This document shows positions 30,008-63,865 of a DNA stretch of 64,000 bases, piece by piece. Below the pieces are notes generated by a model. That model was not told the origin of the DNA, made no database searches, and worked only from the letters and a program-made list of their open reading frames with translations. This DNA comes from Bacilli bacterium (lineage in GTDB: Bacteria > Bacillota_I > Bacilli_A > RF39 > UBA660): assembly GCA_017428495.1 (NCBI GenBank), contig JAFRQS010000011.1, positions 74,920 through 138,919 on the forward strand, read 5' to 3'. Position 1 is the stretch's first letter. Each line of letters opens with the position of its first letter. Made by a program: the position numbers and the translations under genes.

Positions 30008-30648
30008 TAATTCACCATCTCCCCAATATACTCAGTAAAATTAGTAAGATATATTATTCCAACTAACATCAATAATATCATAACTAAATTCAAAAACCAT
30101 TCTTTTTTTAAAACATTTGGTAATTTATCTCTCAATTTATCTAATAAAATAAATACAATAGCTCCAATTGCACCACCAATTATATTTAATATAATATCAT
30201 CTACATCAAACACCCTACCTATAATATTTTGTACAATTTCAATAGAAACAGATGATATAGCAGTAAGAATAACAGCAGGATATACTTTATTTTGATCCAA
30301 ATACGCTGTTACAAATAGCCCAAATGGCATAAATAATAGTATATTACCAACAAAGTTCTTTATAAACATTTTTGAATTCAAACTATATCTAAACATTTCT
30401 TTAAATGGTATATAATTTGATAACCCATAATTATCATCTTGAAATGTAACAATATAGAATAAACTAAGTAAATATATAATAAACAATAGATATGTTAATT
30501 CCTTGTAAAATACAAATTTCTCTTTTTTAGATATAAGATATGCAATTCTAACAGAAGAAAGAATAATAGTAAATATAACTATCATAGTCCATGCTCCTCC
30601 AAATATTTCAAGAATCATACCTTTTATCAATATTTCACTTCCTCTCAA
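30007..30648 (-). CDS. VanZ-family membrane protein
   Basis: 213 aa; multi-TM with VanZ-like motif region YIPFKEMF...NILLFMPFGLF. Confidence 0.55.
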   Translation of the reverse strand: MRGSEILIKGMILEIFGGAWTMIVIFTIILSSVRIAYLISKKEKFVFYKELTYLLFIIYLLSLFYIVTFQDDNYGLSNYIPFKEMFRYSLNSKMFIKNFVGNILLFMPFGLFVTAYLDQNKVYPAVILTAISSVSIEIVQNIIGRVFDVDDIILNIIGGAIGAIVFILLDKLRDKLPNVLKKEWFLNLVMILLMLVGIIYLTNFTEYIGEMVN

Positions 30649-37114: not shown

Positions 37115-38830
37115 TTAGCTTATCCATTCACCGCATCCACCATTTATATTACATTCTTTTCCAGAATGATATCCTTCTTGGCAATAAAATTCATTACCAC
37201 TAGATAAACTTGTTCTATTAACACGGCACCTAAAACGCCTTCCTCCAGTATTTTGTTCACATACAATTGTATTATTCCATTCAGCAATAACATTGCAGTT
37301 ACTTTCCCCAAATACATTCTTCAATTGATCATCAATTGTATTATCAAAAGTAAAACAATTAAAATCATTATTAGTATTACCTTTATATTTAATGCAAACA
37401 GCTTTATCAGTTGTAGAATCAAATTCATCAGTATCTCCAGGCCATCTTATAAATACAATAGAATTAATATCATTAGGATTTGTATAAGTTTCAGTACCTT
37501 GATATACTCTAGTTGAGAATTGATTATATGCATTTTCCCTATTTAAAAATGCATATAAATTGTATTCATTACCAATACTGTCAGCAAACCATTCACTTGT
37601 TGTTAAAACTATACCTCCAGTATCATATCCATTACCATTACAAACACTAGTAGCAATTGCATTTGCCTCACTTTCTAAATAGCCCCATTTATTTATATAA
37701 TCATCTTTTATTTTAGTTTCACACTCCGATTTATTAGTCACTATATAATTATATAAGTATCTTTCATTATCAATAAACCAATCATCAGCTGTAGATTCTG
37801 TATATTCATCAATATTATTAGTATTGCTACATATTTTTTGAGCACTTAATTCAGCGCTTGAAACATCGTAGTTAAAGTTATTTATCAAATCTCCTTTCAC
37901 AAATGTTTTACAAGCGTTTGCATCAGTTACAGTATATAAATCTACTCCATCAGTTGTAGTTTTAGTTGTAAATGAACTTATACTAGAACTGCTAATACCA
38001 TTGCTAGACACTCCTGTAAAAAACCAATCACTTGTAGTAGTATATCTTATTGTATCTAAATTATTACATACTTTATAAGCTGTTGAAGCAGCATAATAAT
38101 CAGGTTCTCCATTATTCATTTCTTTTTGTTTAATAAATGGTAAACAACTTGATTTGTTAGTTACAGTATAGAAATCAGCACCATAGCGATTTATTTTACT
38201 TACAAAAGAACTTATTTCTGAATAAGTAAATAATCCATTTGCAATTGATTCATCAATATAATCAGATGCTGTAAAAGCTAGGCTTGATTTTGTGCATATT
38301 TTATAAGCATCTGAAGTAAGTCGATAATTACTTTTGTTATAATGCAATTCTTCAATTCTTTTTACAGCATTAACACAATTTGCTTCATTTGTTATTGTAT
38401 ATGTATATAATTCTCTAGGAATTCCAAATGAATACACATATTCTGATACATTATCTCTCTGTATACAATTCATTTCATCTTTTGTACCTGTACATGTTAT
38501 TCCTGCAAACTTACTGCCACTTGCTCCTTTTAATTTTATTGTTGCTGTGCCATTACTATTATATGTAATTGTACAACTCGAATAATCATCATTTAATTTT
38601 GCAACATCAGTACATGGTATACTTGTTGCATTATAATTTTGATTTACTGCTTGCTGACTTAAATAGTCTTTTTCTGCATTTGTTGCTATTAGTTTTGCAC
38701 TACTTTCCATACTTTTTAATCTTGTAGATTTAATTGTATTCATTATTTGTGGTATTGCTATTATTAGTATTACTGCTAATATTACTATTACTGCTAATAA
38801 TTCTACTAATGTAAATCCTTTCTTTTTCAT
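37115..38830 (-). CDS. large prepilin-type N-terminal domain protein (type IV pilin-like), Cys-rich, four ~65-aa internal modules; paralog of 32101-33342
   Basis: 571 aa; canonical class III leader MKKKG/FTLVELLAVIVILAVILIIAIPQIM; four repeats of TVTN..C...IK / KIC.N modules; conserved C-terminal block IVFIRWPGDTDEF...VFGESNC shared with the paralog. Confidence 0.75.
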   Translation of the reverse strand: MKKKGFTLVELLAVIVILAVILIIAIPQIMNTIKSTRLKSMESSAKLIATNAEKDYLSQQAVNQNYNATSIPCTDVAKLNDDYSSCTITYNSNGTATIKLKGASGSKFAGITCTGTKDEMNCIQRDNVSEYVYSFGIPRELYTYTITNEANCVNAVKRIEELHYNKSNYRLTSDAYKICTKSSLAFTASDYIDESIANGLFTYSEISSFVSKINRYGADFYTVTNKSSCLPFIKQKEMNNGEPDYYAASTAYKVCNNLDTIRYTTTSDWFFTGVSSNGISSSSISSFTTKTTTDGVDLYTVTDANACKTFVKGDLINNFNYDVSSAELSAQKICSNTNNIDEYTESTADDWFIDNERYLYNYIVTNKSECETKIKDDYINKWGYLESEANAIATSVCNGNGYDTGGIVLTTSEWFADSIGNEYNLYAFLNRENAYNQFSTRVYQGTETYTNPNDINSIVFIRWPGDTDEFDSTTDKAVCIKYKGNTNNDFNCFTFDNTIDDQLKNVFGESNCNVIAEWNNTIVCEQNTGGRRFRCRVNRTSLSSGNEFYCQEGYHSGKECNINGGCGEWIS

Positions 38831-45792: not shown

Positions 45793-46053
45793 TTATTTTG
45801 TTTCTATAATAAGTTTAATAGCTGTTCTTTCCTCACCATCTATCATGATATCAGAAAAAGCAGGGATGCATATTAAATTTTTACCTGTAGGTGCAACAAA
45901 TCCTCTTGCAATAGCAATTCCTTTTATAGCTTGATTTAATGCTCCTGCACCTATAGCTTGAATTTCAACACTACTCTTTTCTTTTAAAACATTAGCCAGT
46001 GCTCCAGCTACTTTATTTGCATCTGATTTAGATGATACTTTCAATATTTCCAT
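45793..46053 (-). CDS. spoVS: stage V sporulation protein S
   Basis: MEILKVSSKSDANKVAGALANVLKEKSSVEIQAIGAGALNQAIKGIAIARGF matches SpoVS; 86 aa from MEILK. Confidence 0.85.
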   Translation of the reverse strand: MEILKVSSKSDANKVAGALANVLKEKSSVEIQAIGAGALNQAIKGIAIARGFVAPTGKNLICIPAFSDIMIDGEERTAIKLIIETK

Positions 46054-46099
46054 ATTTATTCCTCCTGAATTAATATATGAAAAAAATAACAATTTAGAA

Positions 46100-46940: not shown

Positions 46941-48290
46941 TTATTCCCCCAATCTTTTTTCTAGTTTCTCTTTTATATCATATACTTCTTTACAACCCAT
47001 AAATACTATTACTGCATTTTTATGTCTTAATAATGGATTTATACATTCAGTATAATTTATATCAATCAAATTATCTACACTACCAATCTTTAAATGCTCC
47101 GCATTTTTAAGTTCATTAACTATTAACATTGGTGAAGAATTAGGATATTCCTCTTGAGTTTCTCTATCACTAAATATATCAGTAACATATGCTTTATCAG
47201 CAACACTCAATGCATCTGCATATTCTTTATATAATGCTTGAGTTCTAGAGAAAGTATTTTCTAAAAATACTGCTACCAATTCCTTATTAGGATATTTTTG
47301 CCTTACTGCTTCTAATGTTACTTTAATTTCTGTAGGATGGTGAGCATAATCATCAATTGTTATTATATCTCCTATAGTTTTTTCTTTAAATCTCCTCTTT
47401 GCACCCTTAAATGATTTTATACTATCATGAACTTCATCAATATTAAGTCCTTCTATATAACTTAATATAATCACACTTAAAGCATTTAAAACCATATGCT
47501 TACCATATAATGGCAAATCAAAATGTCCTATGAACTCATTATAATGATATACATCAAAAGAACTACCTTCATGATTTAGTATTATATTCTTTGCTATCCA
47601 TTCATTATCTTCATTAAAACCATAATATATTAGTTTCTTATCTGTTTTTAAACTTCTAACATTTAAATCATCACCACATGCAATTACATTACCATCACAT
47701 TGCCTTAAAAACTCTTCATATGCATCTTTCATATCTTCGATGTCTTTATAATAATCAACATGATCTAATTCTATATTAGTAAGAATGATATTTTTAGGAT
47801 AATAATTTAAAAAATGTCTTTTATACTCACAAGCTTCTAAAAAGAAATATTTATTAGCAGCCATTGCATGACCAGTACCATCACCAATCAAATAATTAGC
47901 TCCTACTAAATCATCAAAAACATGTGAAAGTAATGCAGTTGTAGTAGTCTTACCATGGCAACCACATATACATGTTGTATTATAATTATTTACTAATTCA
48001 TGAAGCATATCATAATAATAATACCTTTTAAGACCTAATTCAATTGCCTTTTTTACTTCAACATTAGATTCATCAAATGCATTACCAATTATAACTATCA
48101 TATGATCATCAATATTACTTTCGTCAAAAGGAGTTATCTTTATTCCTCTTTTAACTAGTTCATCTTCTGTAAACAAATGATGTGTAACATCAGATCCTTC
48201 CACTTCATTACCTAAATCTTTCAAAATAAGTGCAAGTGCACTCATTCCTGAACCCTTTATTCCAATAAAATGATATTTCATAAATCTCAC
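46941..48290 (-). CDS. murC: UDP-N-acetylmuramate--L-alanine ligase
   Basis: 449 aa; HFIGIKGSGMSALA N-terminal, Mur ligase central GTHGKTTTT motif. Confidence 0.85.
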   Translation of the reverse strand: MRFMKYHFIGIKGSGMSALALILKDLGNEVEGSDVTHHLFTEDELVKRGIKITPFDESNIDDHMIVIIGNAFDESNVEVKKAIELGLKRYYYYDMLHELVNNYNTTCICGCHGKTTTTALLSHVFDDLVGANYLIGDGTGHAMAANKYFFLEACEYKRHFLNYYPKNIILTNIELDHVDYYKDIEDMKDAYEEFLRQCDGNVIACGDDLNVRSLKTDKKLIYYGFNEDNEWIAKNIILNHEGSSFDVYHYNEFIGHFDLPLYGKHMVLNALSVIILSYIEGLNIDEVHDSIKSFKGAKRRFKEKTIGDIITIDDYAHHPTEIKVTLEAVRQKYPNKELVAVFLENTFSRTQALYKEYADALSVADKAYVTDIFSDRETQEEYPNSSPMLIVNELKNAEHLKIGSVDNLIDINYTECINPLLRHKNAVIVFMGCKEVYDIKEKLEKRLGE

Positions 48291-48375: not shown

Positions 48376-48735
48376 CTATGTACGATGAAAACCAGAAATA
48401 TAATGGCCATCATTATATATACTATAACTTACATATCCTTTAATTTCAGAATTATCTCTAGGATCAAGTATCGGACAATCTAAATATTTATTTTCACATA
48501 AATCATCAATATCAATGCTTACAGAGTCTCCAACTACATTCAATTCCTCATATAAATCAGGATTATCAAGCATATAATTTTGAGCAACTCTTTCTATTTC
48601 ATTCACTATATCAGTATATAATGCATTTTTCTTTTTATTATATATATCTAATACATTAGGTACAGCAATCATAGCTAACATACCAAGAATTGCTATTACA
48701 GCAATTAATTCTATTAAAGTAAATCCCTTTTTCAT
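48376..48735 (-). CDS. small type IV pilin/pseudopilin (prepilin-type N-terminal cleavage/methylation domain)
   Basis: 119 aa; canonical leader MKKG/FTLIELIAVIAILGMLAMIAVPNV with Glu+5. Confidence 0.7.
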   Translation of the reverse strand: MKKGFTLIELIAVIAILGMLAMIAVPNVLDIYNKKKNALYTDIVNEIERVAQNYMLDNPDLYEELNVVGDSVSIDIDDLCENKYLDCPILDPRDNSEIKGYVSYSIYNDGHYISGFHRT

Positions 48736-48802
48736 ACTATCACCTATTATAATTATATCACATATATAAAAATTACCACAATATTTTTATCGTGGTAATT
48801 TA

Positions 48803-49657
48803 TTATTCATTTTCCTTAATTTCTACTTTAGTATTAGCAGAATCTTCTAATAATTTTGGATTATCAAATATATACTGCAATATTTTAGCAGATTTAACAA
48901 AATAATAACCATCTGCTATTCTCTCATCAAAATTCATACCAAATTCACATAATTTTCTTATCTCTTTTTTACCATTTACTATTACTTCTTCATCTTTAAT
49001 TTCTCCCATAGTCACAAGTGAAGAACATGTTCCAAAGTTTGTTATATTATGGTATATAGCACCACATTTTATACTACCTAAATTAGATACCATCATACTA
49101 CTATAATATACATTGTCACTTACTAAACTCTTAGGAAGCATTCCATTTTTATCAAACCATTTTAATATACCAACTACTGGTACTCTTATTATATTAGGAA
49201 GTTTACCTAATATATCAATTGCACTATTTGCGCCTTCTTTTTTAGATTTTTTATTTCTAAAGCCACTTACCTTTTCCATTATTTTTTTACTAATTGATTC
49301 CAAATTATCATTTTCATTTATTGGAATCATAATCATAACCTCTTCACTCTTATCATCAAAAGAAACTTTAGCAACAAAACTTATAACAACATCATTATGT
49401 TCATAAACATGTCTATTAGCAATAAATCTATTTAATTTTGGTCTATTATATAAAGTTTTACCAATAGCAGTTACAAATGTATGAAAATATGTAATATCAC
49501 TACCATTCTTTTTCTTATTATTTACATATTTAACAAGTTCTGTAACATCCATCTTCTGATTTATATATACATCACTATCACATCTTTGTGGTTTTAAATC
49601 AACAAGTATTTGTTCCATACCACCTAAATTTCTAATTCTTTTCGCATCTTTCCTCAT
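48803..49657 (-). CDS. 2-oxoacid dehydrogenase E2 acyltransferase catalytic-domain-like protein, no lipoyl domain, active-site DHRxxDG replaced by DERIADG
   Basis: 284 aa; hand alignment with E2 catalytic domains (ITYFHTFVTAIGKTL / MVSNLGSI..GAIY / FGMNFDERIADGYYF vs canonical LSFDHRVIDGA). Confidence 0.55.
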   Translation of the reverse strand: MRKDAKRIRNLGGMEQILVDLKPQRCDSDVYINQKMDVTELVKYVNNKKKNGSDITYFHTFVTAIGKTLYNRPKLNRFIANRHVYEHNDVVISFVAKVSFDDKSEEVMIMIPINENDNLESISKKIMEKVSGFRNKKSKKEGANSAIDILGKLPNIIRVPVVGILKWFDKNGMLPKSLVSDNVYYSSMMVSNLGSIKCGAIYHNITNFGTCSSLVTMGEIKDEEVIVNGKKEIRKLCEFGMNFDERIADGYYFVKSAKILQYIFDNPKLLEDSANTKVEIKENE

Positions 49658-49835
49658 AAATCCTCCTATGCATAATAATCAAATATGCCTAAACATAAAT
49701 ATAAATTTATAAATATCAATATTATCTTTCTTAATTGCATTAATAGTCTTCTTCATTATAACAATATATAACTATTGTAAGATCTATTATACCATCACTT
49801 TAACTTATAATTTTATTTTAGCATATTACATAAAT

Positions 49836-49866
49836 AAAAAAAAGAATTATTATTTAAATAATTCTT
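49836..49866 (-). terminator. rho-independent terminator at end of the 5-gene surface-protein cluster
   Basis: AAGAATTATT-ATTTA-AATAATTCTT hairpin overlapping the stop of the 313-aa gene with A/T runs. Confidence 0.5.
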
Positions 49867-50779
49867 TATCATAAAAGCCTTTAAATTTAATTTTACTTTT
49901 ATCATTAAATGTTATAACTATAATATTATTTTCCAACTCACTTATATTAGATACATACTTATTATATTTCTTAATAGTATCACCTTCAACATATAACATT
50001 TCATTATCTGAGGTTATAATAAATTCAGTAGGAACATTTTTAAATCCACTAATATTATTACCCATACCAACTAATATAATATTTTTAACTTTAACATCTT
50101 TATTATCCTTTTTAAATACTTCACCATTAATTTTAGATATTGACATATCAGAATATAATATATATTCATTATTTATGTACATCATATCTTTATCATAAGG
50201 AAATAAGGTATATACATCATACAATTTGTTTTTTGCGGTTAATACTACAAAACTCATATGATTTATATTAATGTAACTTTTTACTTTTAAATTTGTAAAA
50301 TTAACAATTTTTTCATTGGGAATATCAATTTTATTGATATATAACTCATTTAAATTGTCATTATTCAACACAAACTTATATAAATTTCCATCTTCAGTTA
50401 TGCCAAAAGCATTTAATCCTTTTTCGAAAAACATACTAGCATCATATAATGTATTAAATTTTACATTCTCAAGTACTTCCTTATTACTTGAATTCAAACT
50501 TATATGTAAATGCTTTTCATCATCAATATACAATTTGCCAACATTATTATCATTAATAACAGTAAATTCAATTTTATTGATGACATTATAAAATATATTA
50601 TCTTTATAAGACTCATTATATTCAATTGAATTAATGTGTTTTATTCCCTCATACTGAAAAGTAAAACTTTTAGAATCACTTTTATCAGATTTCATAAATT
50701 TGTAATATGATAAGTATCCTACAAATACTAAAAACATTATAACAAATACAATCAACACTATCCTTAACTTTTTATTCAT
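49850..50779 (-). CDS. membrane-anchored hypothetical protein (N-terminal TM, extracytoplasmic body)
   Basis: about 309 aa from MNKKLRIVLIVFVIMFLVFVGYL; RBS GGGTGATTAT upstream. Confidence 0.55.
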   Translation of the reverse strand: MNKKLRIVLIVFVIMFLVFVGYLSYYKFMKSDKSDSKSFTFQYEGIKHINSIEYNESYKDNIFYNVINKIEFTVINDNNVGKLYIDDEKHLHISLNSSNKEVLENVKFNTLYDASMFFEKGLNAFGITEDGNLYKFVLNNDNLNELYINKIDIPNEKIVNFTNLKVKSYININHMSFVVLTAKNKLYDVYTLFPYDKDMMYINNEYILYSDMSISKINGEVFKKDNKDVKVKNIILVGMGNNISGFKNVPTEFIITSDNEMLYVEGDTIKKYNKYVSNISELENNIIVITFNDKSKIKFKGFYDKELFK

Positions 50780-50802
50780 ATAATCACCCATTACTTTATA
50801 TC

Positions 50803-51657
50803 TTAACCCATTTTCTTAACAGAGGCTTCTTTAGCCATATTTAATTCTTCTGTAGTAACTCTCATTGATTCAGGAATCCAATTTAAATATATATGTACCA
50901 TATCATTGTGAGAGTAATAACCTCTTCCACCTTCTTTTCCAAATGGAAAAAACTCAAACATATATTCATCTTCTTCATTTGTTAATTCTCTATCATAATA
51001 TTCAATCCAAAAATTGGCCGCCATAACAACGTTATCTACCAAACGTAGTTGTATATCATTGTTACAAAAATATGGATGAATACCTTCAAACTCTACTACT
51101 TCATGATTCATAGCATTCCAAGTTAATGGTCCAAAATCTTCACCTGTAGTGTGATAAGTAAATAATTCCTCATTAGTAAATAAATCCTTAAATTTATATA
51201 TATTTTCATTTGGAGTATTATATACATATCCAAACATTACTTTTGGTTTACCTTCAATGAAGAAACAAGCTGAGAAATAAAGATTTGAATCATTTATTTC
51301 ATCGTCATCATATGTTTCATATTTTTTCATTTCTTCAGCTTCTTCTTCTTCTGAAAGTCTTTTAAATACCAATTCACTTGAATCATCAATAACTGGTTCT
51401 TCATTAATTTCAATATTTTCATTTTCAACAATTGGTTCTATAGTTGGTTGTGGAGTAGGTTCTGGGGTTGCTTTAATAATAGGATCAACGGATGGAGAAG
51501 GTATAACAGTTTCAATAGGTGTTACCGTTTCCTCTATAATATCCGTTTTATCTAAAGAATAATTGTCACATCCAACTAAAATACTAGATGCCAATAATAC
51601 TGCTGCAATTTGCGTTGCTATTTTGCCATTATACTTATTATTTCTCTGTAATTTCAT
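50803..51657 (-). CDS. hypothetical lipoprotein with Pro/Thr-rich linker
   Basis: 284 aa; lipobox SSILVGC; linker TPIETVIPSPSVDPIIKATPEPTPQPTIEPI. Confidence 0.55.
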   Translation of the reverse strand: MKLQRNNKYNGKIATQIAAVLLASSILVGCDNYSLDKTDIIEETVTPIETVIPSPSVDPIIKATPEPTPQPTIEPIVENENIEINEEPVIDDSSELVFKRLSEEEEAEEMKKYETYDDDEINDSNLYFSACFFIEGKPKVMFGYVYNTPNENIYKFKDLFTNEELFTYHTTGEDFGPLTWNAMNHEVVEFEGIHPYFCNNDIQLRLVDNVVMAANFWIEYYDRELTNEEDEYMFEFFPFGKEGGRGYYSHNDMVHIYLNWIPESMRVTTEELNMAKEASVKKMG

Positions 51658-51719
51658 AATGCCTCCTTAATTTGAATAAATATATTATATGCAATAATTT
51701 ATATTTGTCAATTTAATTG

Positions 51720-54071
51720 TTAACAACCTCCTGTTTCTGTATACGTAGCTGTAACAATGTCTTCTCGTTTTGAAGGATCTGCATAATATGAGACTCTTGT
51801 AAAAACGCAGTGTGTTTCTGTTGTTATAGTTCTCTGATGATTAGAACATATACCTTTTTTTACTGTATAATATGTACTACCTATATAACGTATATTTTTT
51901 TCATTTTTAGAGCAATTAGTCTCATGCCAACATGTTTTATAACCACATTGAATTGCATCTGCTTTATTTTCACAAGCTGTGCATGAATCCGCCCCACAAG
52001 AATCACATGCATTATAGCCACATATACTAGCATCTGTTACATCACCACACCATGCACACGTATTATATTCTATACATTTGTTTTTATTATTTGGATCATA
52101 TTTTTTGCAACCGCATGCTCCACAACTCCTAGGCTTACATGTAGCTGCACCACATCTTGAACATTTTTTATATCCACAATGTTCCACATCATTTCCATAA
52201 AATTCACACACCTCACATGTATCCGCACCACAACTCCAATGTTCACTTTTAACCCTATCGCAGTCTGGTTTTTGCACTTCTTCATTAAAATCATAGTGAC
52301 ATGATTCACCATTGTAACTACTTGAAGTTCCAGGGCCATCATCTGGAGGTTGAGTTTCACAATCTGATTTATAGCATCCTTGTCCATCACCTGTTGCTGA
52401 TGCAACCTGTCCATCTCCACAAGTTGCTTGTGATTTAGCTGTTTCTTCACTTGAATATGGATAATCTCCTGAACATACACAATCTACTTTATAACATCCT
52501 TCTCCATTATTAGAACATTGTTTTACTTGATTTGATGATGAACATGATATTGAATTCTTTGCATCATCTTCACTTATATGTGGATAGCTTGCTGGACATG
52601 CTTTTCCTTTTACAATTAATGTACAAGTACCAGTTTTTGTAGAATCCACTTTTGATGTTACTGTTACTGTTATTTTTTGATCTATTGGTGATAATCCATT
52701 ATTTCCTTTAACTTCTCCTGTTTCTTCATTTATTGTTGCATATGTTGTATCTGATAAACTCCATTTTACATCAGTCTTTGTAGAATTCTTTGGTGTATAA
52801 ACTTTCTCCATTTGCCCTATACCATTATATTCTATCTCTAAATTTTTACATCCTAATGTTTCAGGTATTCCATCCCATACTGTTACTTTACATGTTGATG
52901 TCTGTCCTCTTGTTGTTTTTACCCTTATTGTTACTTCCTTTGTACCTGTTATATTCTGCGCTGTTATTTGTGCCTTTGATAAACAATTCGAATTTGTATT
53001 ATTTAACTCACATGTTTCTGGTGGGTTTGAATATTGTATTGTTAAAGCACTTGGATCGCTACTTGTCCATTCCAACTTTCTATTTGCTGCATTTGCAGGT
53101 ACATATTGTGGATGTAATGTTACTTTTGTTCCAGAAGCTATTTTTATTCCTTCTGCTGGACATACAACATAACTTGAATTATCTGCACTTGGTTCATTTG
53201 GGTTTGTTTCTGGACTTAAATCATTTGGATTCTTTGGTACCAATACTTCTATATCTGTTGTACATACTTGTTTTCTTACTCTTTCTTTTATACTTTCATT
53301 TATTGTTCTTACATCTGTACTTTCACTAAATGTCCATGTATAAATATATTCATTACCTGATGATACTGGATTTGCTGTTACTATTCTTGTCTTTTCACTA
53401 CTCCATTTTCCACATTCACATATTGCATATCTTGCTGTTCTTTCTTTATCTCTTGGGGCTTCCTCATCTTGACATATTCCTATTGGTAAATTTGATTCTC
53501 CCCATCCTAAAAAGCTTATATCTCCTGGTATACAATCCATCTCTTCATCTGATATGTCTGATGCACACCTATTCTCTCCACTTGATGAATCTATTTCTAC
53601 TTTTGTTCCAAACTCTTGTCTTATTGTATTACATTCTTCTGCTGTCTTATCTTCACACAAAAAATCTATTACTTCATCTATTTTATATTTTGTCTCTATA
53701 ACACCATCTACTCGATTTACTAATCCAAATTCTTCTCCTCTTAATGATGTTACTCCACTTCTTATTCTTAATGATATCTTAGGTGGTACTTCATTTAAAT
53801 CTTCTACTATTATCTTATAGTCACCTATTGTTACATTTTGAGCAAATCTTCTTGTTAAATTCTCTATAAATTTATCTTCTGCTATTTTCATGTTTCCTGT
53901 TGTTCTATAATATTGCAAATCTATTGCATCATATGCTGCCGCTTGTGTTGTTTCTTTTATTAAATAATATACTCTATCATTATCTACTGTTACATTTTGA
54001 AATAAATTTACTACTAATATTCCAAATAATCCTAGTACTACTATTAGTACTCCCCATATCGCTTCTTTCAT
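51720..54071 (-). CDS. large surface protein: N-terminal membrane anchor, two Big_2-like Ig domains, C-terminal Cys-rich CGY-x2-C repeat region
   Basis: 783 aa; N-term hydrophobic MKEAIWGVLIVVLGLFGILVVNLF; Big_2-like segments (VVCPAEGIKIASGTKVTLHPQYVPANAANRKLEWTSSDPSALTIQ; KVYTPKNSTKTDVKWSLSDTTYATINEETGEVKG); C-terminal about 150 aa with about 35 Cys including HCGYKKCSRCG, ICGYNACDSCG, QCGYKTCWHETNC. Confidence 0.6.
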   Translation of the reverse strand: MKEAIWGVLIVVLGLFGILVVNLFQNVTVDNDRVYYLIKETTQAAAYDAIDLQYYRTTGNMKIAEDKFIENLTRRFAQNVTIGDYKIIVEDLNEVPPKISLRIRSGVTSLRGEEFGLVNRVDGVIETKYKIDEVIDFLCEDKTAEECNTIRQEFGTKVEIDSSSGENRCASDISDEEMDCIPGDISFLGWGESNLPIGICQDEEAPRDKERTARYAICECGKWSSEKTRIVTANPVSSGNEYIYTWTFSESTDVRTINESIKERVRKQVCTTDIEVLVPKNPNDLSPETNPNEPSADNSSYVVCPAEGIKIASGTKVTLHPQYVPANAANRKLEWTSSDPSALTIQYSNPPETCELNNTNSNCLSKAQITAQNITGTKEVTIRVKTTRGQTSTCKVTVWDGIPETLGCKNLEIEYNGIGQMEKVYTPKNSTKTDVKWSLSDTTYATINEETGEVKGNNGLSPIDQKITVTVTSKVDSTKTGTCTLIVKGKACPASYPHISEDDAKNSISCSSSNQVKQCSNNGEGCYKVDCVCSGDYPYSSEETAKSQATCGDGQVASATGDGQGCYKSDCETQPPDDGPGTSSSYNGESCHYDFNEEVQKPDCDRVKSEHWSCGADTCEVCEFYGNDVEHCGYKKCSRCGAATCKPRSCGACGCKKYDPNNKNKCIEYNTCAWCGDVTDASICGYNACDSCGADSCTACENKADAIQCGYKTCWHETNCSKNEKNIRYIGSTYYTVKKGICSNHQRTITTETHCVFTRVSYYADPSKREDIVTATYTETGGC

Positions 54072-54075
54072 ATTA

Positions 54076-55362
54076 TCACTTCCTATCTATGATATCTGGA
54101 TTTGCAATAATAAATTTGCTCTTATTCATCTCATTAATATTAAATGTATCATAAGGATGATTTTTATTATACTCTCTTACTCTTCCTATTTTACTTCTAT
54201 CTAAAGTTATAACAAATCTTTCCATTGTTGATAAATTACTACTAGTAGAAGTTATATATTTATTTACTAATGTCTTTCCATCTGGAGTAAGACCACTCCA
54301 GTTAGCTGAAGGCTCTCTATTTGGAAATGGATTATTAACATCAATTATTCTATATTGAAATGCCTGGCCACCATATTTATCATAATTTTCATCTGTTTCT
54401 GAACCTGGTTTTGTCACAGGGAATGATAAATTTTTTACTTTATATGAACAATTTACATTTAAATTCCATACATCTCCACCTGCTATTAAATTATTACCTA
54501 AATTTCTAGCAGTTAATACTAATGAATATCCTCTATCAGTAGGATCTGATGCAACTGGCCTTGTATACTCATTAAATGATGTAAAATACTTATCTCCAGC
54601 ATTACACCTATCATATCTATATGTAGATTCTATATTTCCAGTATTTAACTCCAAAAATGTATCAGCCATTGTGTATTTACCATTTAACATAACTGTTTCA
54701 TTCCAACTTTTAATTGTTTTATTACTAAGTTTACAATCATAAGTCGCTTCATCAAAATTACATGCCATAGGAGTTACATTTATCTCATCCATATCTACAA
54801 CTTTTGAATATTCACCCATTTGAGAAAAATGATAAGGAATAGTTTCTACATTCTGAGAAGTAGATACATTTAACTCTACATTTCCATTAAATTTATACTT
54901 ATGAATATTTGATTCATCATCTGATGTAAATTCATCACAAGCTTTTTTATTTTCATAATAATTAACTATTTCTCTTCTTTTGGTTTCTTTTTCTTCACCT
55001 GATAAACTTTTATATTCATTTACCAATTCTTTTATTTTAGATTCATATTGAGTATATTTATATTCAGCAGTACAATTTCTCTTTCCACTAGCATATAATG
55101 GATAATTAAAACCAGTTCCTGCTAATACTCTTTTTATAGGATCAACTGAAAACAATATTTCTTCTTTACATTTAATAGTACAAACATCATTTTTTAGTAC
55201 TTCAATTTCATTCTCAGTTCTAAATGTAGTAACCGTACTTTTACTTGCATCACATGTAATCTCTCTACTATTTGTATTAACCGTATTTATAACTGGATCA
55301 CATGTAGCAGCAAAAGTTACAACTGGTAACAATAACGCAAATAATAATAATTTCTTTTTCAT
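54076..55362 (-). CDS. secreted Cys-containing hypothetical protein
   Basis: 428 aa; signal peptide MKKKLLLFALLLPVVTFAA; 4-nt gap/overlap coupling to flanking genes. Confidence 0.55.
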   Translation of the reverse strand: MKKKLLLFALLLPVVTFAATCDPVINTVNTNSREITCDASKSTVTTFRTENEIEVLKNDVCTIKCKEEILFSVDPIKRVLAGTGFNYPLYASGKRNCTAEYKYTQYESKIKELVNEYKSLSGEEKETKRREIVNYYENKKACDEFTSDDESNIHKYKFNGNVELNVSTSQNVETIPYHFSQMGEYSKVVDMDEINVTPMACNFDEATYDCKLSNKTIKSWNETVMLNGKYTMADTFLELNTGNIESTYRYDRCNAGDKYFTSFNEYTRPVASDPTDRGYSLVLTARNLGNNLIAGGDVWNLNVNCSYKVKNLSFPVTKPGSETDENYDKYGGQAFQYRIIDVNNPFPNREPSANWSGLTPDGKTLVNKYITSTSSNLSTMERFVITLDRSKIGRVREYNKNHPYDTFNINEMNKSKFIIANPDIIDRK

Positions 55363-56021
55363 AATATACCTCGATTCTTTGACCTTCTTTTCATAATTAT
55401 TCTTAATAAAACCAATAATATAATTGTTAAACTAACAATTATCAAATGTCTATGTTCATATATATATCCAAGCACATCTATATTGGTTTCATCATTCTCT
55501 TGTGGTTTAATTTCTGTTTCTTCTCTTTTATTTAAACTTTCTATATACTCATTCATCTTTTTTTCAAATTCTTTTTCACTCAAATTAACATTAGAATTTT
55601 CTTTACATAAAAAGTAATTTTCATATCCTTTGCACAAATCACTTTTTGAATATTTATTATAATATGGAACATTTATTACCTTTGTAAGTATTTTATATCC
55701 TTCACAATAATTATTATTGGATGCATATATTATAACTTGTATTTTACTTCCAGGTGTTAATCCATCAATAACATTACTTGAGTATTTTTTTCCATTACTA
55801 TCTGCCAAATACATATGCTTTGTTATATTGTAAAATATCACTTTATATGTAACTTTATCATTTTCAATATTTTTACTAAGTCTATATACAACATCATTAG
55901 CATCACTTCTAAGTGCTGTTTTAAAGCTATTTGTACATCTTGAATCTATTACATCATATTTTGCTAATGTAGTAATTGGTATAAATAGTAACATTAATAG
56001 CAAATAACGCAATTTCTTCAA
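55359..56021 (-). CDS. type I membrane protein (signal peptide, about 150-aa ectodomain, C-terminal TM and basic tail)
   Basis: 220 aa; N-term MKKLRYLLLMLLFIPITTLA, C-term LIIVSLTIILLVLLRIIMKRRSKNRGIL. Confidence 0.55.
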   Translation of the reverse strand: MKKLRYLLLMLLFIPITTLAKYDVIDSRCTNSFKTALRSDANDVVYRLSKNIENDKVTYKVIFYNITKHMYLADSNGKKYSSNVIDGLTPGSKIQVIIYASNNNYCEGYKILTKVINVPYYNKYSKSDLCKGYENYFLCKENSNVNLSEKEFEKKMNEYIESLNKREETEIKPQENDETNIDVLGYIYEHRHLIIVSLTIILLVLLRIIMKRRSKNRGIL

Positions 56022-56157: not shown

Positions 56158-56643
56158 ATGAAAAAGAATAAAGTAGCATGGCTTTTACCATTCATAGTAA
56201 TTATTATATTGAGAAGTTGTAATGCTATAAGAGAACAAGAGACTGGCGAAACTAGATATCAAAGATATCAAAGATATAAAGCTGGAACAACAAGTAGCCA
56301 AATGTATAATAATGATTATACTGAGTGCAAAACAATGGCATACTATGAAGATAAAACTAAGGATAGTTTTTATGCAGTTATGGATTACGCCTGTTTAAAA
56401 GAAGGATATCCACTATATGATTGGTATAAAGATGATATGAATGTAAAAGGATATTGCGAAAAAGATCAAATAGTATATGTGGAATCAACTAATGGTGAAT
56501 ATGCGCATGTATTTACTGATAAGAATATAGATGGTTATATACCTACCAGTATTTTAGAATATATACATAAGGAATATTTAGAACAAGATATATCAGAACC
56601 ATCTGTAAAAGTTCTCAAAAAACAAAAACTAGGAAATTCCTAG
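56158..56643 (+). CDS. secreted/membrane-anchored protein with C-terminal bacterial SH3-like domain (paralog 1)
   Basis: 161 aa; N-terminal hydrophobic anchor; C-terminal FYAVMDYACLKEGYPLYDWYKDDMNVKGYCEKDQIVYVESTNGEYAHVFTDKNIDGYIPTSILEYI. Confidence 0.6.
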   Translation: MKKNKVAWLLPFIVIIILRSCNAIREQETGETRYQRYQRYKAGTTSSQMYNNDYTECKTMAYYEDKTKDSFYAVMDYACLKEGYPLYDWYKDDMNVKGYCEKDQIVYVESTNGEYAHVFTDKNIDGYIPTSILEYIHKEYLEQDISEPSVKVLKKQKLGNS

Positions 56644-56719: not shown

Positions 56720-57265
56720 ATGAAAAAGAGGAAATCAAAAGGAAATGGTGCAAAAGCATTATTAATGGCATTTTTAGTTGTACTTGTAGTAAGAGGTTGT
56801 ATAATAGATAGCCAAAAACAACCACATAGTTCAACAAGCAGCAGAACAAATGATGATTCATACAGTAGTGATACTACAATAAGACAATATCAACCTACTA
56901 CATATTATTTAAAAGATGGTACTCCAATTGAATCATCAACAGGTTATGTACCTGAAGGATATGTATATAATGGAACATATTTAATACCTAAAGAATCTGG
57001 TGACAACTTTTATGCAGTTAGAGAATATGCATGCTTAAAAGAGAGTTATCCATTATATGATTGGTATAGAGATGATATGTGCGTAATAGGATATTGCGAA
57101 AAAAATCAAATAGTATATGTAAGTTCAACAAATGGTGATTATTCACATGTATTTACTAGCGATAATGTAGATGGTTACATACCTAATAGTATGTTAGAAT
57201 ACGTACCAGAAGAATATTTAGATCAAGACATATCAGAACAATTTGTAAAAGTACTTAAAAGATAA
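56720..57265 (+). CDS. secreted/membrane-anchored protein with C-terminal bacterial SH3-like domain (paralog 2)
   Basis: 181 aa; FYAVREYACLKESYPLYDWYRDDMCVIGYCEKNQIVYVSSTNGDYSHVFTSDNVDGYIPNSMLEYV nearly identical domain to paralog 1. Confidence 0.6.
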   Translation: MKKRKSKGNGAKALLMAFLVVLVVRGCIIDSQKQPHSSTSSRTNDDSYSSDTTIRQYQPTTYYLKDGTPIESSTGYVPEGYVYNGTYLIPKESGDNFYAVREYACLKESYPLYDWYRDDMCVIGYCEKNQIVYVSSTNGDYSHVFTSDNVDGYIPNSMLEYVPEEYLDQDISEQFVKVLKR

Positions 57266-59798: not shown

Positions 59799-60887
59799 TC
59801 AACTATTATATCTAGAAATATTTAGTAATATTCCCATTTCACATAATGTTATTAATAAAGAACTACCACCATATGAAAGAAAGGGTAATGTTACTCCCGT
59901 TATAGGTATTAAAGATACAACTACCATAAGATTTAATAATGCTTGAAAAGAAAGTTGAAATGTAATACCAAATGATAAATATTTTGCAAATGTATCATTA
60001 GATAATAATGATATTTTTATACCCCTATATATAATTATTAAAAATAAAGTAGACACAATTAATATACCTAAGAATCCTAATTCTTCACTTATTATTGCAA
60101 ATATAAAATCTGTTTGTGGTTCTGGTAAATAGAAATGTTTTTGAATAGAATTACCTATTCCAAGTCCTAAAAATCCACCTGGTCCTATTGCGAATAAACT
60201 TTGAATTGCTTGAAATCCACTACCTAAAGGATCAATCCATGGATTAATAAAAGATAATATTCTTTTGAACCTATATGGAGCTATTAAAATAAGTATAACT
60301 GCTCCTATAGCACCAAATATACCCGTAATGTAGAAAAATTTCATACTTATACCAGCAATAAATAATAATCCAATAATGCTCATTACTATTATTACACCAG
60401 TACCAAAATCAGGTTGTAACATTACTAAACCAAATACAAGTAATGTAATAAATAGTATTGGTAATACCCCTTTTTTAATATCTTTTATATTTTTTTCATT
60501 ATTACACAAATATTTAGATACAAATATAATAAGACCTAATTTCATAAATTCACTTGGTTGAATACCAAATCCCCCTATACCAAACCAACTCCTACTACCA
60601 TTTCTAATTTTTCCTATACCTGGAATTATTACCAATATTAATAATAAAAAGCAAACAAGTAGTATGATGTTTGCTTTATCTTTATAGTACATATATGGTA
60701 TTTTTGATATTATAATCATTAATATAGTTCCAATTATTAAAAATATAGATTGTAATTTTAAGTATTTGAGTGAATCATTAAATTTATATTCTGCCCATAT
60801 ACTTGATGATGAATAAATCATCATAACTCCAAATATAGAAATAATTATTACTGCAAACAATAATATCACATCTATATTTTTTTTCAC
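59799..60887 (-). CDS. SEDS-family peptidoglycan glycosyltransferase (FtsW/SpoVE-like)
   Basis: Multi-TM SEDS motifs; start reassigned to GTG (MKKNIDVILLFAVII) with RBS GGAG 10 nt upstream, overlapping mraY stop as TAGTG. Confidence 0.8.
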   Translation of the reverse strand: MKKNIDVILLFAVIIISIFGVMMIYSSSSIWAEYKFNDSLKYLKLQSIFLIIGTILMIIISKIPYMYYKDKANIILLVCFLLLILVIIPGIGKIRNGSRSWFGIGGFGIQPSEFMKLGLIIFVSKYLCNNEKNIKDIKKGVLPILFITLLVFGLVMLQPDFGTGVIIVMSIIGLLFIAGISMKFFYITGIFGAIGAVILILIAPYRFKRILSFINPWIDPLGSGFQAIQSLFAIGPGGFLGLGIGNSIQKHFYLPEPQTDFIFAIISEELGFLGILIVSTLFLIIIYRGIKISLLSNDTFAKYLSFGITFQLSFQALLNLMVVVSLIPITGVTLPFLSYGGSSLLITLCEMGILLNISRYNS

Positions 60888-61897
60888 TAAATCCACACTC
60901 CAAATGCTATACCTGCCATAGCAAGTATGAATCCTACTACCCAAAATCCTTTCACTATTTCTCTTTCATCTACACCAAGTTTTTCAAAATGATGATGAAG
61001 AGGTGTCATTAAAAACAATTTATGCTTAAATACTTTTACCCATATAACCTGTAGTATTACAGATAATGTTTCTATTATAAATACTCCCATAACCGCAAGT
61101 AATGTTATTTCATGATCAGTAAGTATTGCAACTGTAGCAAGAGTGGCACCTAATGCTAATGAACCAGTATCTCCCATAAACACTTTTGCAGGATTTGTAT
61201 TAAATATAAGGAATCCTAATAATGCACCTACTAATACAAAGCAAAATATTGCTATATCTTGATATCCAGATACCCATCCAGAACCCCACGCAATAATACC
61301 TAAAGCTAAAAATGCTATAGCAGATAGTCCACCAGCCAATCCATCAAGTCCATCAGTTAAATTAACTGCGTTTGAACCTCCTACTAATACAAACAATATA
61401 AATATTCCATAAAACCATCCCATATTTAATTTAATATTTAATGTATATATTTCAAGCAATGGTTCATTACCACTTTTCATATAAATAAAGAAGAATACAA
61501 GTGCTACTATAAGTTGTAAAAATAATTTCTGTAAACTAGTTAAACCAACATTTGTCTTTCTTCTAATGCTTAAATAATCATCTAAAAAACCTATTAACGC
61601 ATAACTAATAAAAACAAAAAACACTATGAATAAATTTGGTGTAAACTCTATTTTATCAAATAATAATAATGTTATTATTGCAATAAATACTGCCAATATA
61701 AATATTATTCCACCCATTGTAGGAGTGCCATCCTTTTTCTTATGAGAATCTTCCAAATATATACTTACTCTTTGCTTAATATGACTTCTTCTTAATATTG
61801 GTACTATTATAAGTCCCAATACAATTGATACTAAAAAACCAATCATTAATGATAATACCGATTTAGCAAGTATTAACATAATATCATCTCCAAACAT
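60887..61897 (-). CDS. mraY: phospho-N-acetylmuramoyl-pentapeptide transferase
   Basis: 336 aa; MraY motifs NAVNLTDGLDGLA and MGDTGSLALG. Confidence 0.9.
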   Translation of the reverse strand: MFGDDIMLILAKSVLSLMIGFLVSIVLGLIIVPILRRSHIKQRVSIYLEDSHKKKDGTPTMGGIIFILAVFIAIITLLLFDKIEFTPNLFIVFFVFISYALIGFLDDYLSIRRKTNVGLTSLQKLFLQLIVALVFFFIYMKSGNEPLLEIYTLNIKLNMGWFYGIFILFVLVGGSNAVNLTDGLDGLAGGLSAIAFLALGIIAWGSGWVSGYQDIAIFCFVLVGALLGFLIFNTNPAKVFMGDTGSLALGATLATVAILTDHEITLLAVMGVFIIETLSVILQVIWVKVFKHKLFLMTPLHHHFEKLGVDEREIVKGFWVVGFILAMAGIAFGVWI

Positions 61898-61963
61898 AAC
61901 AATTATACTATATTATTTATATCATTTCTAGTATAAGTATATTTTATTTTGTATACAAAATGC

Positions 61964-63865
61964 CTAATTTCCTAAAAGTAATCTAACTACCCCACCATAT
62001 TTTATTCTTTTATTTGCCTCTGGTGATTGTTCCTTTACATAGTCTCCAGTACCACTATAATTAATAGTAAAATCTTTTAATAACTTAATTGCATCTTCTT
62101 TCTTCATACCCACTACATTCGGTACATCTAAATATTTAATCTCATTCCAATTATATTCTTTAGGTTTTACATTATCCTCTTTTATATTTAATATATTAAT
62201 ACAATCTGTAAGTATTTCTTTCGCAATAGGTGCAGATACAGTACCACCATATTGAGTAACTCCTTTTGGATAATCTATTGCAACATATACTATAACTTCA
62301 GGGTTAGAAGCAGGAGTAAATCCTATAAAAGATACTATATAATTTCCTACCATATATCTACCATCTTTTACTTTTTGCGCTGTACCAGTTTTACCACCTA
62401 CACTATGACCTTCAATATATGCATTCCTTCCTGTACCATTTGCAACTACACTTTCTAATGCATACCTTACTTTTTTACTTGCATCTTCACTTATTACTTT
62501 TCTTACAAATGTTTTATCATATTCTTTAATAACATTATTTGTTTCAGGCTCTAATATTCTTTTTACAATATAAGGTTTATATAAATTCCCTCCATTTATT
62601 GCTGCAGATACTGCTGTTATTTGTTGTATAGGAGTTACAGATACTCCTTGTCCAAAAGATGTAGTAGCAAGTTCTACAGGACCAACTCTATCTAAATTAA
62701 ATAATATGCCATTTTCTTCACCATTTAAATCTATTCCTGTCTTTTTACCAAAACCAAAATTATTTATATAATTAAATAATTTTTCTTTACCAAGTTTTTG
62801 TCCCATTACTACAAATCCAGGATTACAAGAATTTTCTACTACTTGTAAAAATGTTTCAGCACCATGTCCTCCAGCCTTCCAACATCTAATTCTTGCATTT
62901 TCAACTTGTATACTCCCGCCATCATAAAATGTATCATTAAAATCAATTGTGTTTTCCTCTAATGATGCTGCCAAAGTTATTATTTTAAATGTAGATCCAG
63001 GTTCATAAGTACTCCATATTGGTAAATTCCTATTAATTTGTTCAATAGTATAATTCTTATAATTAGATGGTGAAAAATTTGGTCTAGAACTCATAGCAAG
63101 TATTTCTCCATTATTTGGATTCATTACTATTGCAAGTGCACTATCAGGATTATATTTTGCTACCGCATTATCAAGTTCCCTTTCTACAGCCTTCTGAATA
63201 TCCAAATTTATAGTTAATTGAATATTCATACCATCCTGTGGCTTTTCATATACTTCACTCATAGAAAGCCTATTACCTTTAGCATCACTAAAATATTTAA
63301 TCATCCCATATTTACCTGTCAAATACTTATCATATTGCAATTCTATGCCACTTAAACCCTGATTATCTATTCCTACATAACCAATCACATGAGAAAGTAA
63401 TGTATCATATGGATAATATCTTTTACTTTCCTTAAGTAGATATACTCCATCATAATTTAATTCACTTATTCTATTAGCAATATCATAATTTAATCTTCTA
63501 CCTTCTGGATGAACTCTTTCTATTGATGTCTTTTTAGATACATGTCGATACATTTCTTCATATCTAACATCTAATATTTCACTTAAATCTTTTGCTACCT
63601 TTTCTTTATCTTTAATTTGATTTGGAATTATTACTAAAGATGTAGTAGTAATATTATCCGCTATTATTAAATTATTAATATCATATATGTATCCTCTATT
63701 AGCTTCAACTGGCAAATTTCTACTCCATAAATCAGTAGCTAATGTATTTAATTTTTTATATTGAAACAATTGAATATATGCCACTTTCAATATAACCAAA
63801 AAAAATAGAAAGAATATAATTAATAAAACTATTCTAATTCTTTTATGTATAAATTTAAAAAACAT
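61964..63865 (-). CDS. class B penicillin-binding protein (FtsI/SpoVD-type) with C-terminal PASTA domain
   Basis: 633 aa; N-terminal TM, dimerisation domain, transpeptidase motifs STFK, SxN (SCN), KTGT; C-terminal PASTA (LDVPNVVGMKKEDAIKLL). Confidence 0.85.
   Translation of the reverse strand: MFFKFIHKRIRIVLLIIFFLFFLVILKVAYIQLFQYKKLNTLATDLWSRNLPVEANRGYIYDINNLIIADNITTTSLVIIPNQIKDKEKVAKDLSEILDVRYEEMYRHVSKKTSIERVHPEGRRLNYDIANRISELNYDGVYLLKESKRYYPYDTLLSHVIGYVGIDNQGLSGIELQYDKYLTGKYGMIKYFSDAKGNRLSMSEVYEKPQDGMNIQLTINLDIQKAVERELDNAVAKYNPDSALAIVMNPNNGEILAMSSRPNFSPSNYKNYTIEQINRNLPIWSTYEPGSTFKIITLAASLEENTIDFNDTFYDGGSIQVENARIRCWKAGGHGAETFLQVVENSCNPGFVVMGQKLGKEKLFNYINNFGFGKKTGIDLNGEENGILFNLDRVGPVELATTSFGQGVSVTPIQQITAVSAAINGGNLYKPYIVKRILEPETNNVIKEYDKTFVRKVISEDASKKVRYALESVVANGTGRNAYIEGHSVGGKTGTAQKVKDGRYMVGNYIVSFIGFTPASNPEVIVYVAIDYPKGVTQYGGTVSAPIAKEILTDCINILNIKEDNVKPKEYNWNEIKYLDVPNVVGMKKEDAIKLLKDFTINYSGTGDYVKEQSPEANKRIKYGGVVRLLLGN

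Follow-up and report, generated by a model that had tools for sequence, protein, structure and literature searches.

What does the catalytic domain of a 2-oxoacid dehydrogenase E2 subunit do when it is encoded on its own, and with its catalytic histidine replaced by another residue? This question is raised by a gene at positions 48803-49657 (minus strand) of a 64,000-nucleotide stretch of DNA from a Bacilli bacterium (assembly GCA_017428495.1, contig JAFRQS010000011.1), the whole of which is called the window here. An earlier sequence-only reading had described the gene as an open reading frame (ORF) of 284 residues, encoding an E2 catalytic-domain homologue without lipoyl or subunit-binding domains, in which the catalytic His is replaced by Glu (DERIADG). 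It had placed the gene in an accessory surface locus, next to a pilin gene and apart from E1 and E3 genes, and had suggested a repurposed protein, possibly non-catalytic or of altered chemistry. Based on the analysis described below, we assign the protein with high confidence to a distinct family, separate from the pyruvate dehydrogenase (PDH) complex, which has a conserved Glu and a new His site. As for its role, the sequence evidence leads us to favour, with a probability of about 0.55, a catalytically active and repurposed acyltransferase, which would depend on acyl-CoA and would act in membrane-lipid acylation, coupled to an acyl-CoA ligase.

The limits of the ORF are exactly those of the sequence-only reading (284 residues, with an ATG start and the stop codon included), to which only the strand, unstated there, has to be added. 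The protein has a single Pfam match, PF00198, the catalytic domain of the 2-oxoacid dehydrogenases (E=2e-13, 50.7 bits for a cutoff of 23); there is no other match at E<=1, and hence no lipoyl or subunit-binding domain by Pfam, as had been claimed, the whole chain being a catalytic-type domain. Against the NCBIfam equivalog models for E2 components (sucB, PDH E2 and similar) it scores only 13-21 bits, for cutoffs of 378-722. A monomer model, obtained from a diverse alignment of 89 sequences, has a mean pLDDT of 91 and a pTM of 0.90 (an earlier model from 17 close homologues, with a pLDDT of 60, was not used), and the top Foldseek matches of this model are E2 cores only (E from 1e-17 to 1e-13). 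About 80 residues fail to superpose on E2, namely two extra helices (residues ~143-170) and the termini, including a low-confidence polar tail at the C-terminus. Inserted between the "R-x-G-K-L" region of E2 and its (S/T)-N-x-G strand, the two helices (residues 143-152 and 155-170 in the model; 49148-49231, minus strand) make up some 30 residues; this insertion includes a proline, P154, that is invariant in the family alignment (A3), and appears to be specific to the family, with no counterpart in E2 or in chloramphenicol acetyltransferase (CAT). The C-terminal "NPxLL" helix of the E2 core is retained, and in the window protein the polar tail runs on past "NPKLLED", whereas a short stretch of hydrophobic residues closes some E2 chains; for the assembly of trimers into 24- or 60-mer cores, as in E2, this difference is no more than suggestive.

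The position of the replaced histidine was established by three independent HMMER alignments. In a single-sequence alignment to 3MAE, 9NJT and 7Q5Q, the motif D244-E245-R246-I-A-D249-G250 (48908-48928, minus strand) sits on the E2 motif D-H-R-x-x-D-G, which reads DHRI(I/L)DG in these structures; the same register is found with a 17-sequence profile, and again with an 89-sequence profile aligned to 1B5S and 3MAE. Since the three alignments agree, two of them being made with family profiles, Glu245 (codon GAG, 48925-48923 on the minus strand) occupies the column of the canonical E2 catalytic His, and the substitution proposed in the sequence-only reading stands. Conservation of this Glu among orthologues, named there as a check, was examined in 399 family sequences (window protein numbering is used throughout): position 245 is Glu in 381 sequences, Asp in nine and His in none. 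A set of 121 full-length representatives plus the window protein gives the same picture, with Glu in 106, Asp in nine and Ser, Asn, Gln or Gly in the rest, but never His. The residues around it are almost fixed, with D244 present in 394, R246 in 393 and G250 in 394 of the 399 sequences, and so are two residues elsewhere in the chain (R25 in 393, N76 in 395); together with K97, these five positions are near-invariant down to about 27% identity. Judged from these sequences, the His-to-Glu change is a signature of the family and not a one-off lesion.

The family has also gained a histidine. H203 (codon CAT, 49051-49049), which lies 42 residues upstream of the E2 His column in the segment Y202-H203-N204 (49046-49054, minus strand; family signature "Y-H-H"), is kept in all 398 family sequences having a residue at that position, while position 204 is His in 240 and Asn in 157 of the 399, Asn being the state of the subclade of the window protein. 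Profile alignment to the Geobacillus E2p structure (1B5S) sets "SnLGS" on "TNIGS", "yHhL" on "FTPV" and "DERiaDG" on "DHRMIDG", with H203 on the Thr of the E2 "F-T-P-V-I-N" strand. From the same alignment, the segment V190-S191-N192-L193 (49079-49090, minus strand) matches the "T-(S/T)-N-x-G" stretch of E2, which carries the oxyanion Ser/Thr (Thr323 in E. coli E2o), so that S191 corresponds to the oxyanion residue and H203 follows 12 residues later, on the next strand. Position 191 is Ser in 249 sequences, Thr in 92 and Ala in 57, and N192 is found in 382 of the 399. When compared with the E2 core (PF00198; 1B5S, 3MAE, 1C4T, 1DPC), the family therefore shares the sequence homology, the D-x-R-x-x-D-G frame and the (S/T)-N-x-G segment, but differs in having neither the accessory domains nor the catalytic His, in the new invariant His on the "FTPxIN" strand, and in the two-helix insertion and the polar tail described above. 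It would seem to be a variant of the E2/CAT acyltransferases that has gone unrecognised and whose active site is rewired; with Glu in place of the catalytic His and an invariant His relocated elsewhere, it provides a clean case, in nature, of an active site migrating within this superfamily.

For the purposes of this work, the family is defined by the signature "Y-H-H ... D-E-R-x-x-D-G", a length of about 275-310 residues made up of one E2-type domain, Glu or another acidic residue in the column of the E2 His, and the invariant His 42 residues before it; the window protein, with 284 residues, a single E2-type domain, E245, H203 and the two-helix insertion with P154, belongs to it. A word-indexed search returned 4,440 homologues, and in an exhaustive search of 50%-identity representatives 1,474 clusters passed E<=1e-3, of which 144 also passed E<=1e-30; the best 150 representatives are nearly all stand-alone proteins of 275-310 residues, aligned end to end. 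Of 51 diverse members none is covered by a curated NCBIfam model; they match the E2 models only weakly (for instance 30.6 bits for a cutoff of 445; best E 1.4e-10), no score coming near a cutoff, the source annotations are generic ("2-oxo acid dehydrogenase subunit E2" or "hypothetical protein"), and a literature search found no paper on the family or on its pairing with a ligase. The former label is carried by the protein in thousands of genomes and metagenome-assembled genomes (MAGs), mostly of gut Firmicutes, and wrongly implies a PDH-type complex in anaerobes that have none. Within one clade, a GTDB scan found close relatives (54-88% identity) in 133 or more species, all of which are uncultured gut MAGs of Bacilli, "Mollicutes" or Erysipelotrichaceae type, such as Mycoplasma sp. 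CAG:472 and Ca. Coprovivens. Members were also seen in MAGs labelled as Candidatus Nomurabacteria, Nanosyncoccus and Saccharibacteria (P0141, L051 and L052), all of the candidate phyla radiation, whose bacteria are thought to depend on scavenged lipids; the two with the Saccharibacteria label (L051 and L052) may be mis-binned Bacilli contigs, since they are 64-65% identical to the window protein.

The gene is functional and under purifying selection, with dN/dS values of 0.09-0.19 against five relatives, and it diverges like the housekeeping genes that flank it: identity to the relatives L009 and L011 is 88% and 75% for the E2-like protein, 91% and 80% for MurC, and 85% and 70% for FolD. It is thus an ordinary member of a large, ancient and uncharacterised family, and the window itself holds nothing unique. 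A common conserved family with known activity had been named in the sequence-only reading as a finding that would speak against it; common and conserved the family is, with no known activity or curated model attached.

The main clue to function comes from the genes next to other members of the family. When the neighbours were clustered in 80 GTDB loci of the clade of the window protein, the commonest was an AMP-binding protein of about 575 residues, encoded on the same strand and abutting or overlapping the E2-like gene in 20 of the loci, immediately downstream in 15 and immediately upstream in five; PlsC/LPLAT acyltransferases (PF01553) follow in 14 loci. The best NCBIfam matches of the AMP-binding protein are models of ligases joining long-chain fatty acids to CoA (PRK05605 and PRK06187, E ~1e-100, below the curated cutoffs). 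In L041, a tight operon of four genes encodes the E2-like protein, the ligase and two PlsC-like proteins (both PF01553); the ligase and the PlsC-like proteins alike match, among other models, that of the Aas type from E. coli (NF006386).

More distant clades were sampled by profile searches and by look-ups of Pfam-annotated contexts. The ligase lies directly downstream in P0334 (locus L089), where it is followed by a VTT/DedA protein and a CDP-alcohol phosphatidyltransferase (CDP-OH_P_transf), downstream after gaps of 2 and 1 nucleotides in P0414 (L093) and P0363 (L097), respectively, downstream in P0391 (L095), and 4 nucleotides downstream in P0206 (L103), where an MGDG-synthase-type glycosyltransferase (MGDG_synth) overlaps the start of the E2-like gene; P0376, P0412, P0343 and P0191 have no adjacent ligase. 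Because P0334, P0414 and P0363 form one clade, the pairing counts as four of eight clades separated at <50% identity. A second, high-GC clade, that of P0363, was quantified in a metagenome scan, where 31 of the 76 loci that could be assessed have the ligase as the next gene downstream; this is a tblastn tally, since clustering of ORFs gave antisense shadow ORFs there and undercounted truncated ligases. The adjacent ligases are mutually orthologous, sharing 41-79% identity along the entire chain, and their divergence goes in step with that of the E2-like partners (29-71%). Adjacency is thus frequent in the family, although not universal. A typical genome of this kind is estimated to hold only a handful of AMP-binding genes and, given the repetition of the pairing in both gene orders over deep clades, we therefore regard the two proteins as a functional module. 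Besides the PlsC-like genes, a GT4 glycosyltransferase gene is found 47 nucleotides upstream of the E2-like gene in one relative (L007), whereas no E1, E3 or lipoyl gene was found in the Pfam-annotated loci of relatives.

Some members carry further features. P0155 has an N-terminal segment of about 210 residues with six predicted transmembrane helices (and a weak GtrA-like match), while P0167, P0175, P0193 and P0391 have long polybasic C-terminal tails rich in Lys and Arg; both features point weakly to membrane association. On a Clostridia-type contig (L093, 800-4875), the genes directly upstream of the E2-like/ligase pair encode the two parts of a 2-oxoacid:ferredoxin oxidoreductase (POR_N/TPP and POR), a second AMP-binding protein resembling phenylacetate-CoA ligases (AMP-binding_C_2) and a protein with an ACT domain, which could point to aryl or branched acyl groups as substrates in that lineage.

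Since the family is repeatedly encoded beside a fatty-acid-activating enzyme, its role is probably to move fatty acyl groups into membrane lipids, and the pairing of the ligase with membrane-lipid enzymes points to phospholipids or glycolipids as the destination. In the mechanism that we propose, the partner enzyme, of the long-chain fatty-acid-CoA-ligase type, would activate a fatty acid, probably an exogenous one, and the E2-like protein, a cytoplasmic or peripheral-membrane acyltransferase of the E2/CAT fold, would take the acyl group over from the thioester and hand it to an acceptor used in making or remodelling membrane lipids; further enzymes encoded in the same operon, namely PlsC-type acyltransferases, glycosyltransferases for glycolipids or a CDP-alcohol phosphatidyltransferase, would also take part in some genomes. 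Having a single CAT-like lobe, the protein presumably acts as a trimer, by analogy with E2 and CAT, and the strand carrying H203 would then face the DERxxDG loop of the neighbouring subunit. In this rewired site, in which Glu (rarely Asp) has taken the place of the canonical DHRxxDG His and H203 of the "Y-H-H/N" segment is new, H203 could be the base, with Glu245 to orient or polarise it. We take the equivalent stretch to line the acyl/acceptor pocket at the subunit interface both in E. coli E2o (Ser330/Ser333) and in CAT (Leu160), which makes a cross-subunit His203-Glu245 pair plausible.

As acceptor, a thiol arm such as that of holo-acyl carrier protein (holo-ACP) would be preferred, because the chemistry of E2 would be kept, followed by a lipid or glycolipid hydroxyl, and then by phosphate. 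Transfer to holo-ACP would connect acyl-CoA to the PlsX/PlsY/PlsC route, which is dependent on acyl-ACP and acyl-phosphate and is the usual one in Firmicutes, while a hydroxyl acceptor, implying CAT-like chemistry, would fit the glycosyltransferase and PlsC neighbours. Several observations weigh against this proposal. The ligase is not adjacent in the window, nor in 55-75% of the loci of the two quantified clades, and neither a ligase nor a PlsC homologue was found by tblastn anywhere in the 64 kb; the assignment of the ligase substrate comes from below-cutoff similarity and from neighbouring genes; and a motif scan of 184 loci and of the window found no ACP-like ORF, so that an ACP acceptor has no support from context. 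The placement of H203 in the active site depends on the sequence register with E2 and CAT, and the oxyanion Ser/Thr position is Ala in 57 of the 399 members. A tblastn "ligase" match inside the window gene itself (48850-48945) was discarded as an artefact, in which the maximal ligase ORF of another locus (L029) overlaps the conserved 3' end of the E2-like gene in a different frame.

How does an active acyltransferase compare with other explanations of the same data? Absence of the catalytic His could mean a dead E2-fold protein, a scaffold that only binds the ligase, CoA or a lipid, in the manner of the E3-binding protein (protein X) of the eukaryotic PDH complex. The E3-binding protein, regarded as non-catalytic, keeps lipoyl and binding domains and sits in the PDH core, whereas the E2-like family is bacterial, stand-alone and unrelated to PDH, its replacement site is conserved, no such domains are present in the window protein and no PDH genes occur in the contexts examined. 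Moreover, a specific acidic residue conserved inside an otherwise intact D-x-R-x-x-D-G frame, together with a new invariant His, suggests an active site that was changed and maintained rather than left to decay. Loss of the His need not abolish activity either: E. coli E2o retains 2% of its activity in the H375A mutant, 13% in H375G and 60% in H375W, transthioesterification thus surviving without it, and the authors of that study conclude that thiol-thioester exchange does not use this His for general acid-base catalysis (PMC5986005), which supports the view that a Glu at this position is compatible with catalysis. With the near-invariant D244, E245, R246 and G250, the invariant H203, the low dN/dS and the coupling to a ligase pointing the same way, we infer catalytic competence and consider a pseudoenzyme quite unlikely; of the suggestions in the sequence-only reading, repurposing and altered chemistry are therefore retained, the former because there is no link to E1/E3, and a non-catalytic protein is the less likely option. 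Nor does the annotation as a genuine E2, the core of a 2-oxoacid dehydrogenase or acetoin-type complex relying on a separately encoded lipoyl carrier, find much beyond the source label and the PF00198 match in its favour. The window protein has the fold but neither the lipoyl and subunit-binding domains nor the His, which is absent family-wide; its equivalog scores, like the values up to 30.6 bits seen for other members, fall far below the cutoffs; no E1, E3, lipoyl or lipoate-ligase domain is encoded among the 41 window ORFs scanned with Pfam (the E2-like one and 40 others), as the search for E1/E3 partners proposed in the sequence-only reading comes out here, and no E1, E3 or lipoyl gene in any Pfam-annotated relative locus; the partners seen in the loci examined are an AMP-forming acyl ligase and lipid-synthesis genes in place of E1 and E3; and the host is an anaerobic spore-former (NrdD, GerA). 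A genuine E2 is, on these grounds, hardly credible.

The pairing with an AMP-binding enzyme could also be read as a minimal synthase resembling nonribosomal peptide synthetases (NRPS), with the ligase in the part of the A domain and the E2/CAT-fold protein in that of the C domain, the product being not bulk membrane lipid but an ester, an N-acyl amine or an N-acyl amino acid that is secreted or serves in signalling. We find this unlikely, since none of the 184 loci has a carrier-protein gene, the operon partners are core membrane-lipid enzymes, and a gene with housekeeping-like divergence that occurs in 133 or more GTDB species of a single clade does not resemble an accessory biosynthetic cluster. 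The two-lobed HHxxxDG enzymes themselves (NRPS condensation domains, WS/DGAT and PapA5) are monomeric pseudo-dimers of about 430-450 residues that keep the His, in contrast to the single CAT-like lobe of the window protein. A CAT-like O-acetyltransferase modifying xenobiotics or antibiotics is very unlikely. Type A CATs (6X7Q, 2I9D) keep His195 in H-H-x-x-x-D-G, measure about 215 residues without an insertion, use acetyl-CoA and are typically resistance genes, whereas the window protein is nearer to E2 by sequence and by fold, has no equivalent of His195, and does not fit the definition of a type A CAT (CAT fold with the His195 motif, ~215 residues, acetylation of chloramphenicol); its gene is chromosomal, conserved and not mobile, with syntenic housekeeping neighbours, and the family is paired with a long-chain-type ligase. 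There remains the idea of an accessory factor of the adjacent surface locus, for instance one acylating the pilin or a surface protein, which is favoured by the position of the gene between a pilin gene (N_methyl by Pfam, 119 residues, 48376-48735, minus strand) and a block of secreted and DUF5411/Big_2 proteins. The gene has, however, its own Shine-Dalgarno sequence (AGGAGGA, 49661-49667, minus strand, 3 nucleotides before the ATG) and a strong terminator-like hairpin followed by a T-run directly after the stop codon, between it and the pilin gene (48770-48801, minus strand; the terminator scan found this one site at 48801-48770, for 0.2 expected in shuffles), and is predicted to be a solitary, self-terminated, monocistronic transcription unit. 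The pilin gene is absent from both relatives checked (L009 and L011, 88% and 75% identical), in a relative at 70% identity its position is occupied by a different gene, and relatives at 70-75% identity have no surface block upstream, but aspS, metK and Fic genes in one and a GT4 glycosyltransferase gene in another. The comparative context thus already largely refutes this idea, and the pilin neighbour is incidental: the sequence-only reading was right, within the window, to set the gene beside a pilin and apart from E1/E3, but the evidence does not support an accessory surface locus as its functional setting, given the separate expression signals, the pilin missing from the relatives checked and the variable flanks.

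Returning to the preferred reading, an acyltransferase coupled to a ligase in membrane-lipid acylation, the closest parallels are the known routes for the use of exogenous fatty acids (FadD; AasS/Aas with PlsC-type enzymes; FakAB with PlsX/PlsY/PlsC), which likewise have an acyl-activating enzyme followed by PlsC-type acyltransferases, as in the four-gene operon. To our knowledge, none of the FadD, AasS/Aas or FakAB routes includes an E2/CAT-fold component, and the E2-like protein, if obligatory, would be an added or alternative transfer step. A bolder version, which we put forward tentatively and hold to be improbable as it stands, would make the family the missing transfer step of a third, unrecognised route in Gram-positive and reduced-genome gut bacteria, in which a FadD-type ligase makes long-chain acyl-CoA and a Glu-His site across the trimer interface moves the acyl group to holo-ACP or phosphate, feeding PlsX/PlsY/PlsC independently of FakAB or of an acyl-ACP synthetase. 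Lipid assembly based on acyl-CoA is not the textbook route in the bacteria that carry the family. A role in fatty-acyl transfer to membrane lipids, if confirmed, would have consequences for the use of dietary or host fatty acids by gut commensals, and for the bypass of fatty-acid-synthesis inhibitors.

Two other candidate associations of the gene in the window were rejected. About 190 nucleotides of AT-rich non-coding DNA precede the Shine-Dalgarno sequence, and a regulatory RNA or conserved leader was sought there; Rfam gave no match at E<=1, and relatives do not share this upstream DNA. The synteny with murC, folD and spoVS, which is kept at 70-88% identity, is broken in another lineage at 75% and is therefore read as inherited gene order and not as an operon or a functional link.

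The remainder of the window provides some additional observations. The source is an anaerobic endospore-former, as indicated by a GerA/GerAC/spore-permease operon (618-4145, plus strand), the anaerobic ribonucleotide reductase NrdD (7629-9782, plus strand), YqfD (30635-31810, minus strand) and SpoVS (45793-46092, minus strand); close relatives are nevertheless labelled "Mycoplasma", "Mollicutes" or "Tenericutes" in public records, despite the sporulation genes in the window. A membrane protein of the VTT/DedA family is encoded beside an alpha/beta hydrolase, Hydrolase_4 (6275-6847 and 5574-6266, both on the minus strand); VTT/DedA also occurs in the E2-like/ligase operon of L089, although in the window no link of these two to the E2-like gene is apparent. 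A methylation motif like that of type IV pilins is found at the N-terminus of proteins encoded at three scattered sites, which differ widely in size: besides the 119-residue neighbour of the E2-like gene, these are encoded at 32101-33342 (413 residues) and 37115-38830 (571 residues), all on the minus strand. The block upstream of the E2-like gene (49850-56021, minus strand) consists of secreted or lipoprotein-like ORFs without a Pfam family (313, 284, 428 and 220 residues) around a DUF5411 and Big_2 protein of 783 residues (51720-54071), the C-terminal third of which is extremely rich in Cys; lying between ftsW/mraY/PBP genes (59799-63865) and murC (46941-48290), the block splits a dcw-type cell-wall cluster. 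Next to it, two adjacent paralogous genes (56158-56643 and 56720-57265, plus strand) encode small, unannotated secreted proteins of 161 and 181 residues, with divergent N-terminal halves and a common, conserved C-terminal domain of about 70 residues that reads FYAV.DYACLKE.YPLYDWY.DDM.V.GYCEK.QIVYV.STNG.Y.HVFT..N.DGYIP.S.LEY.

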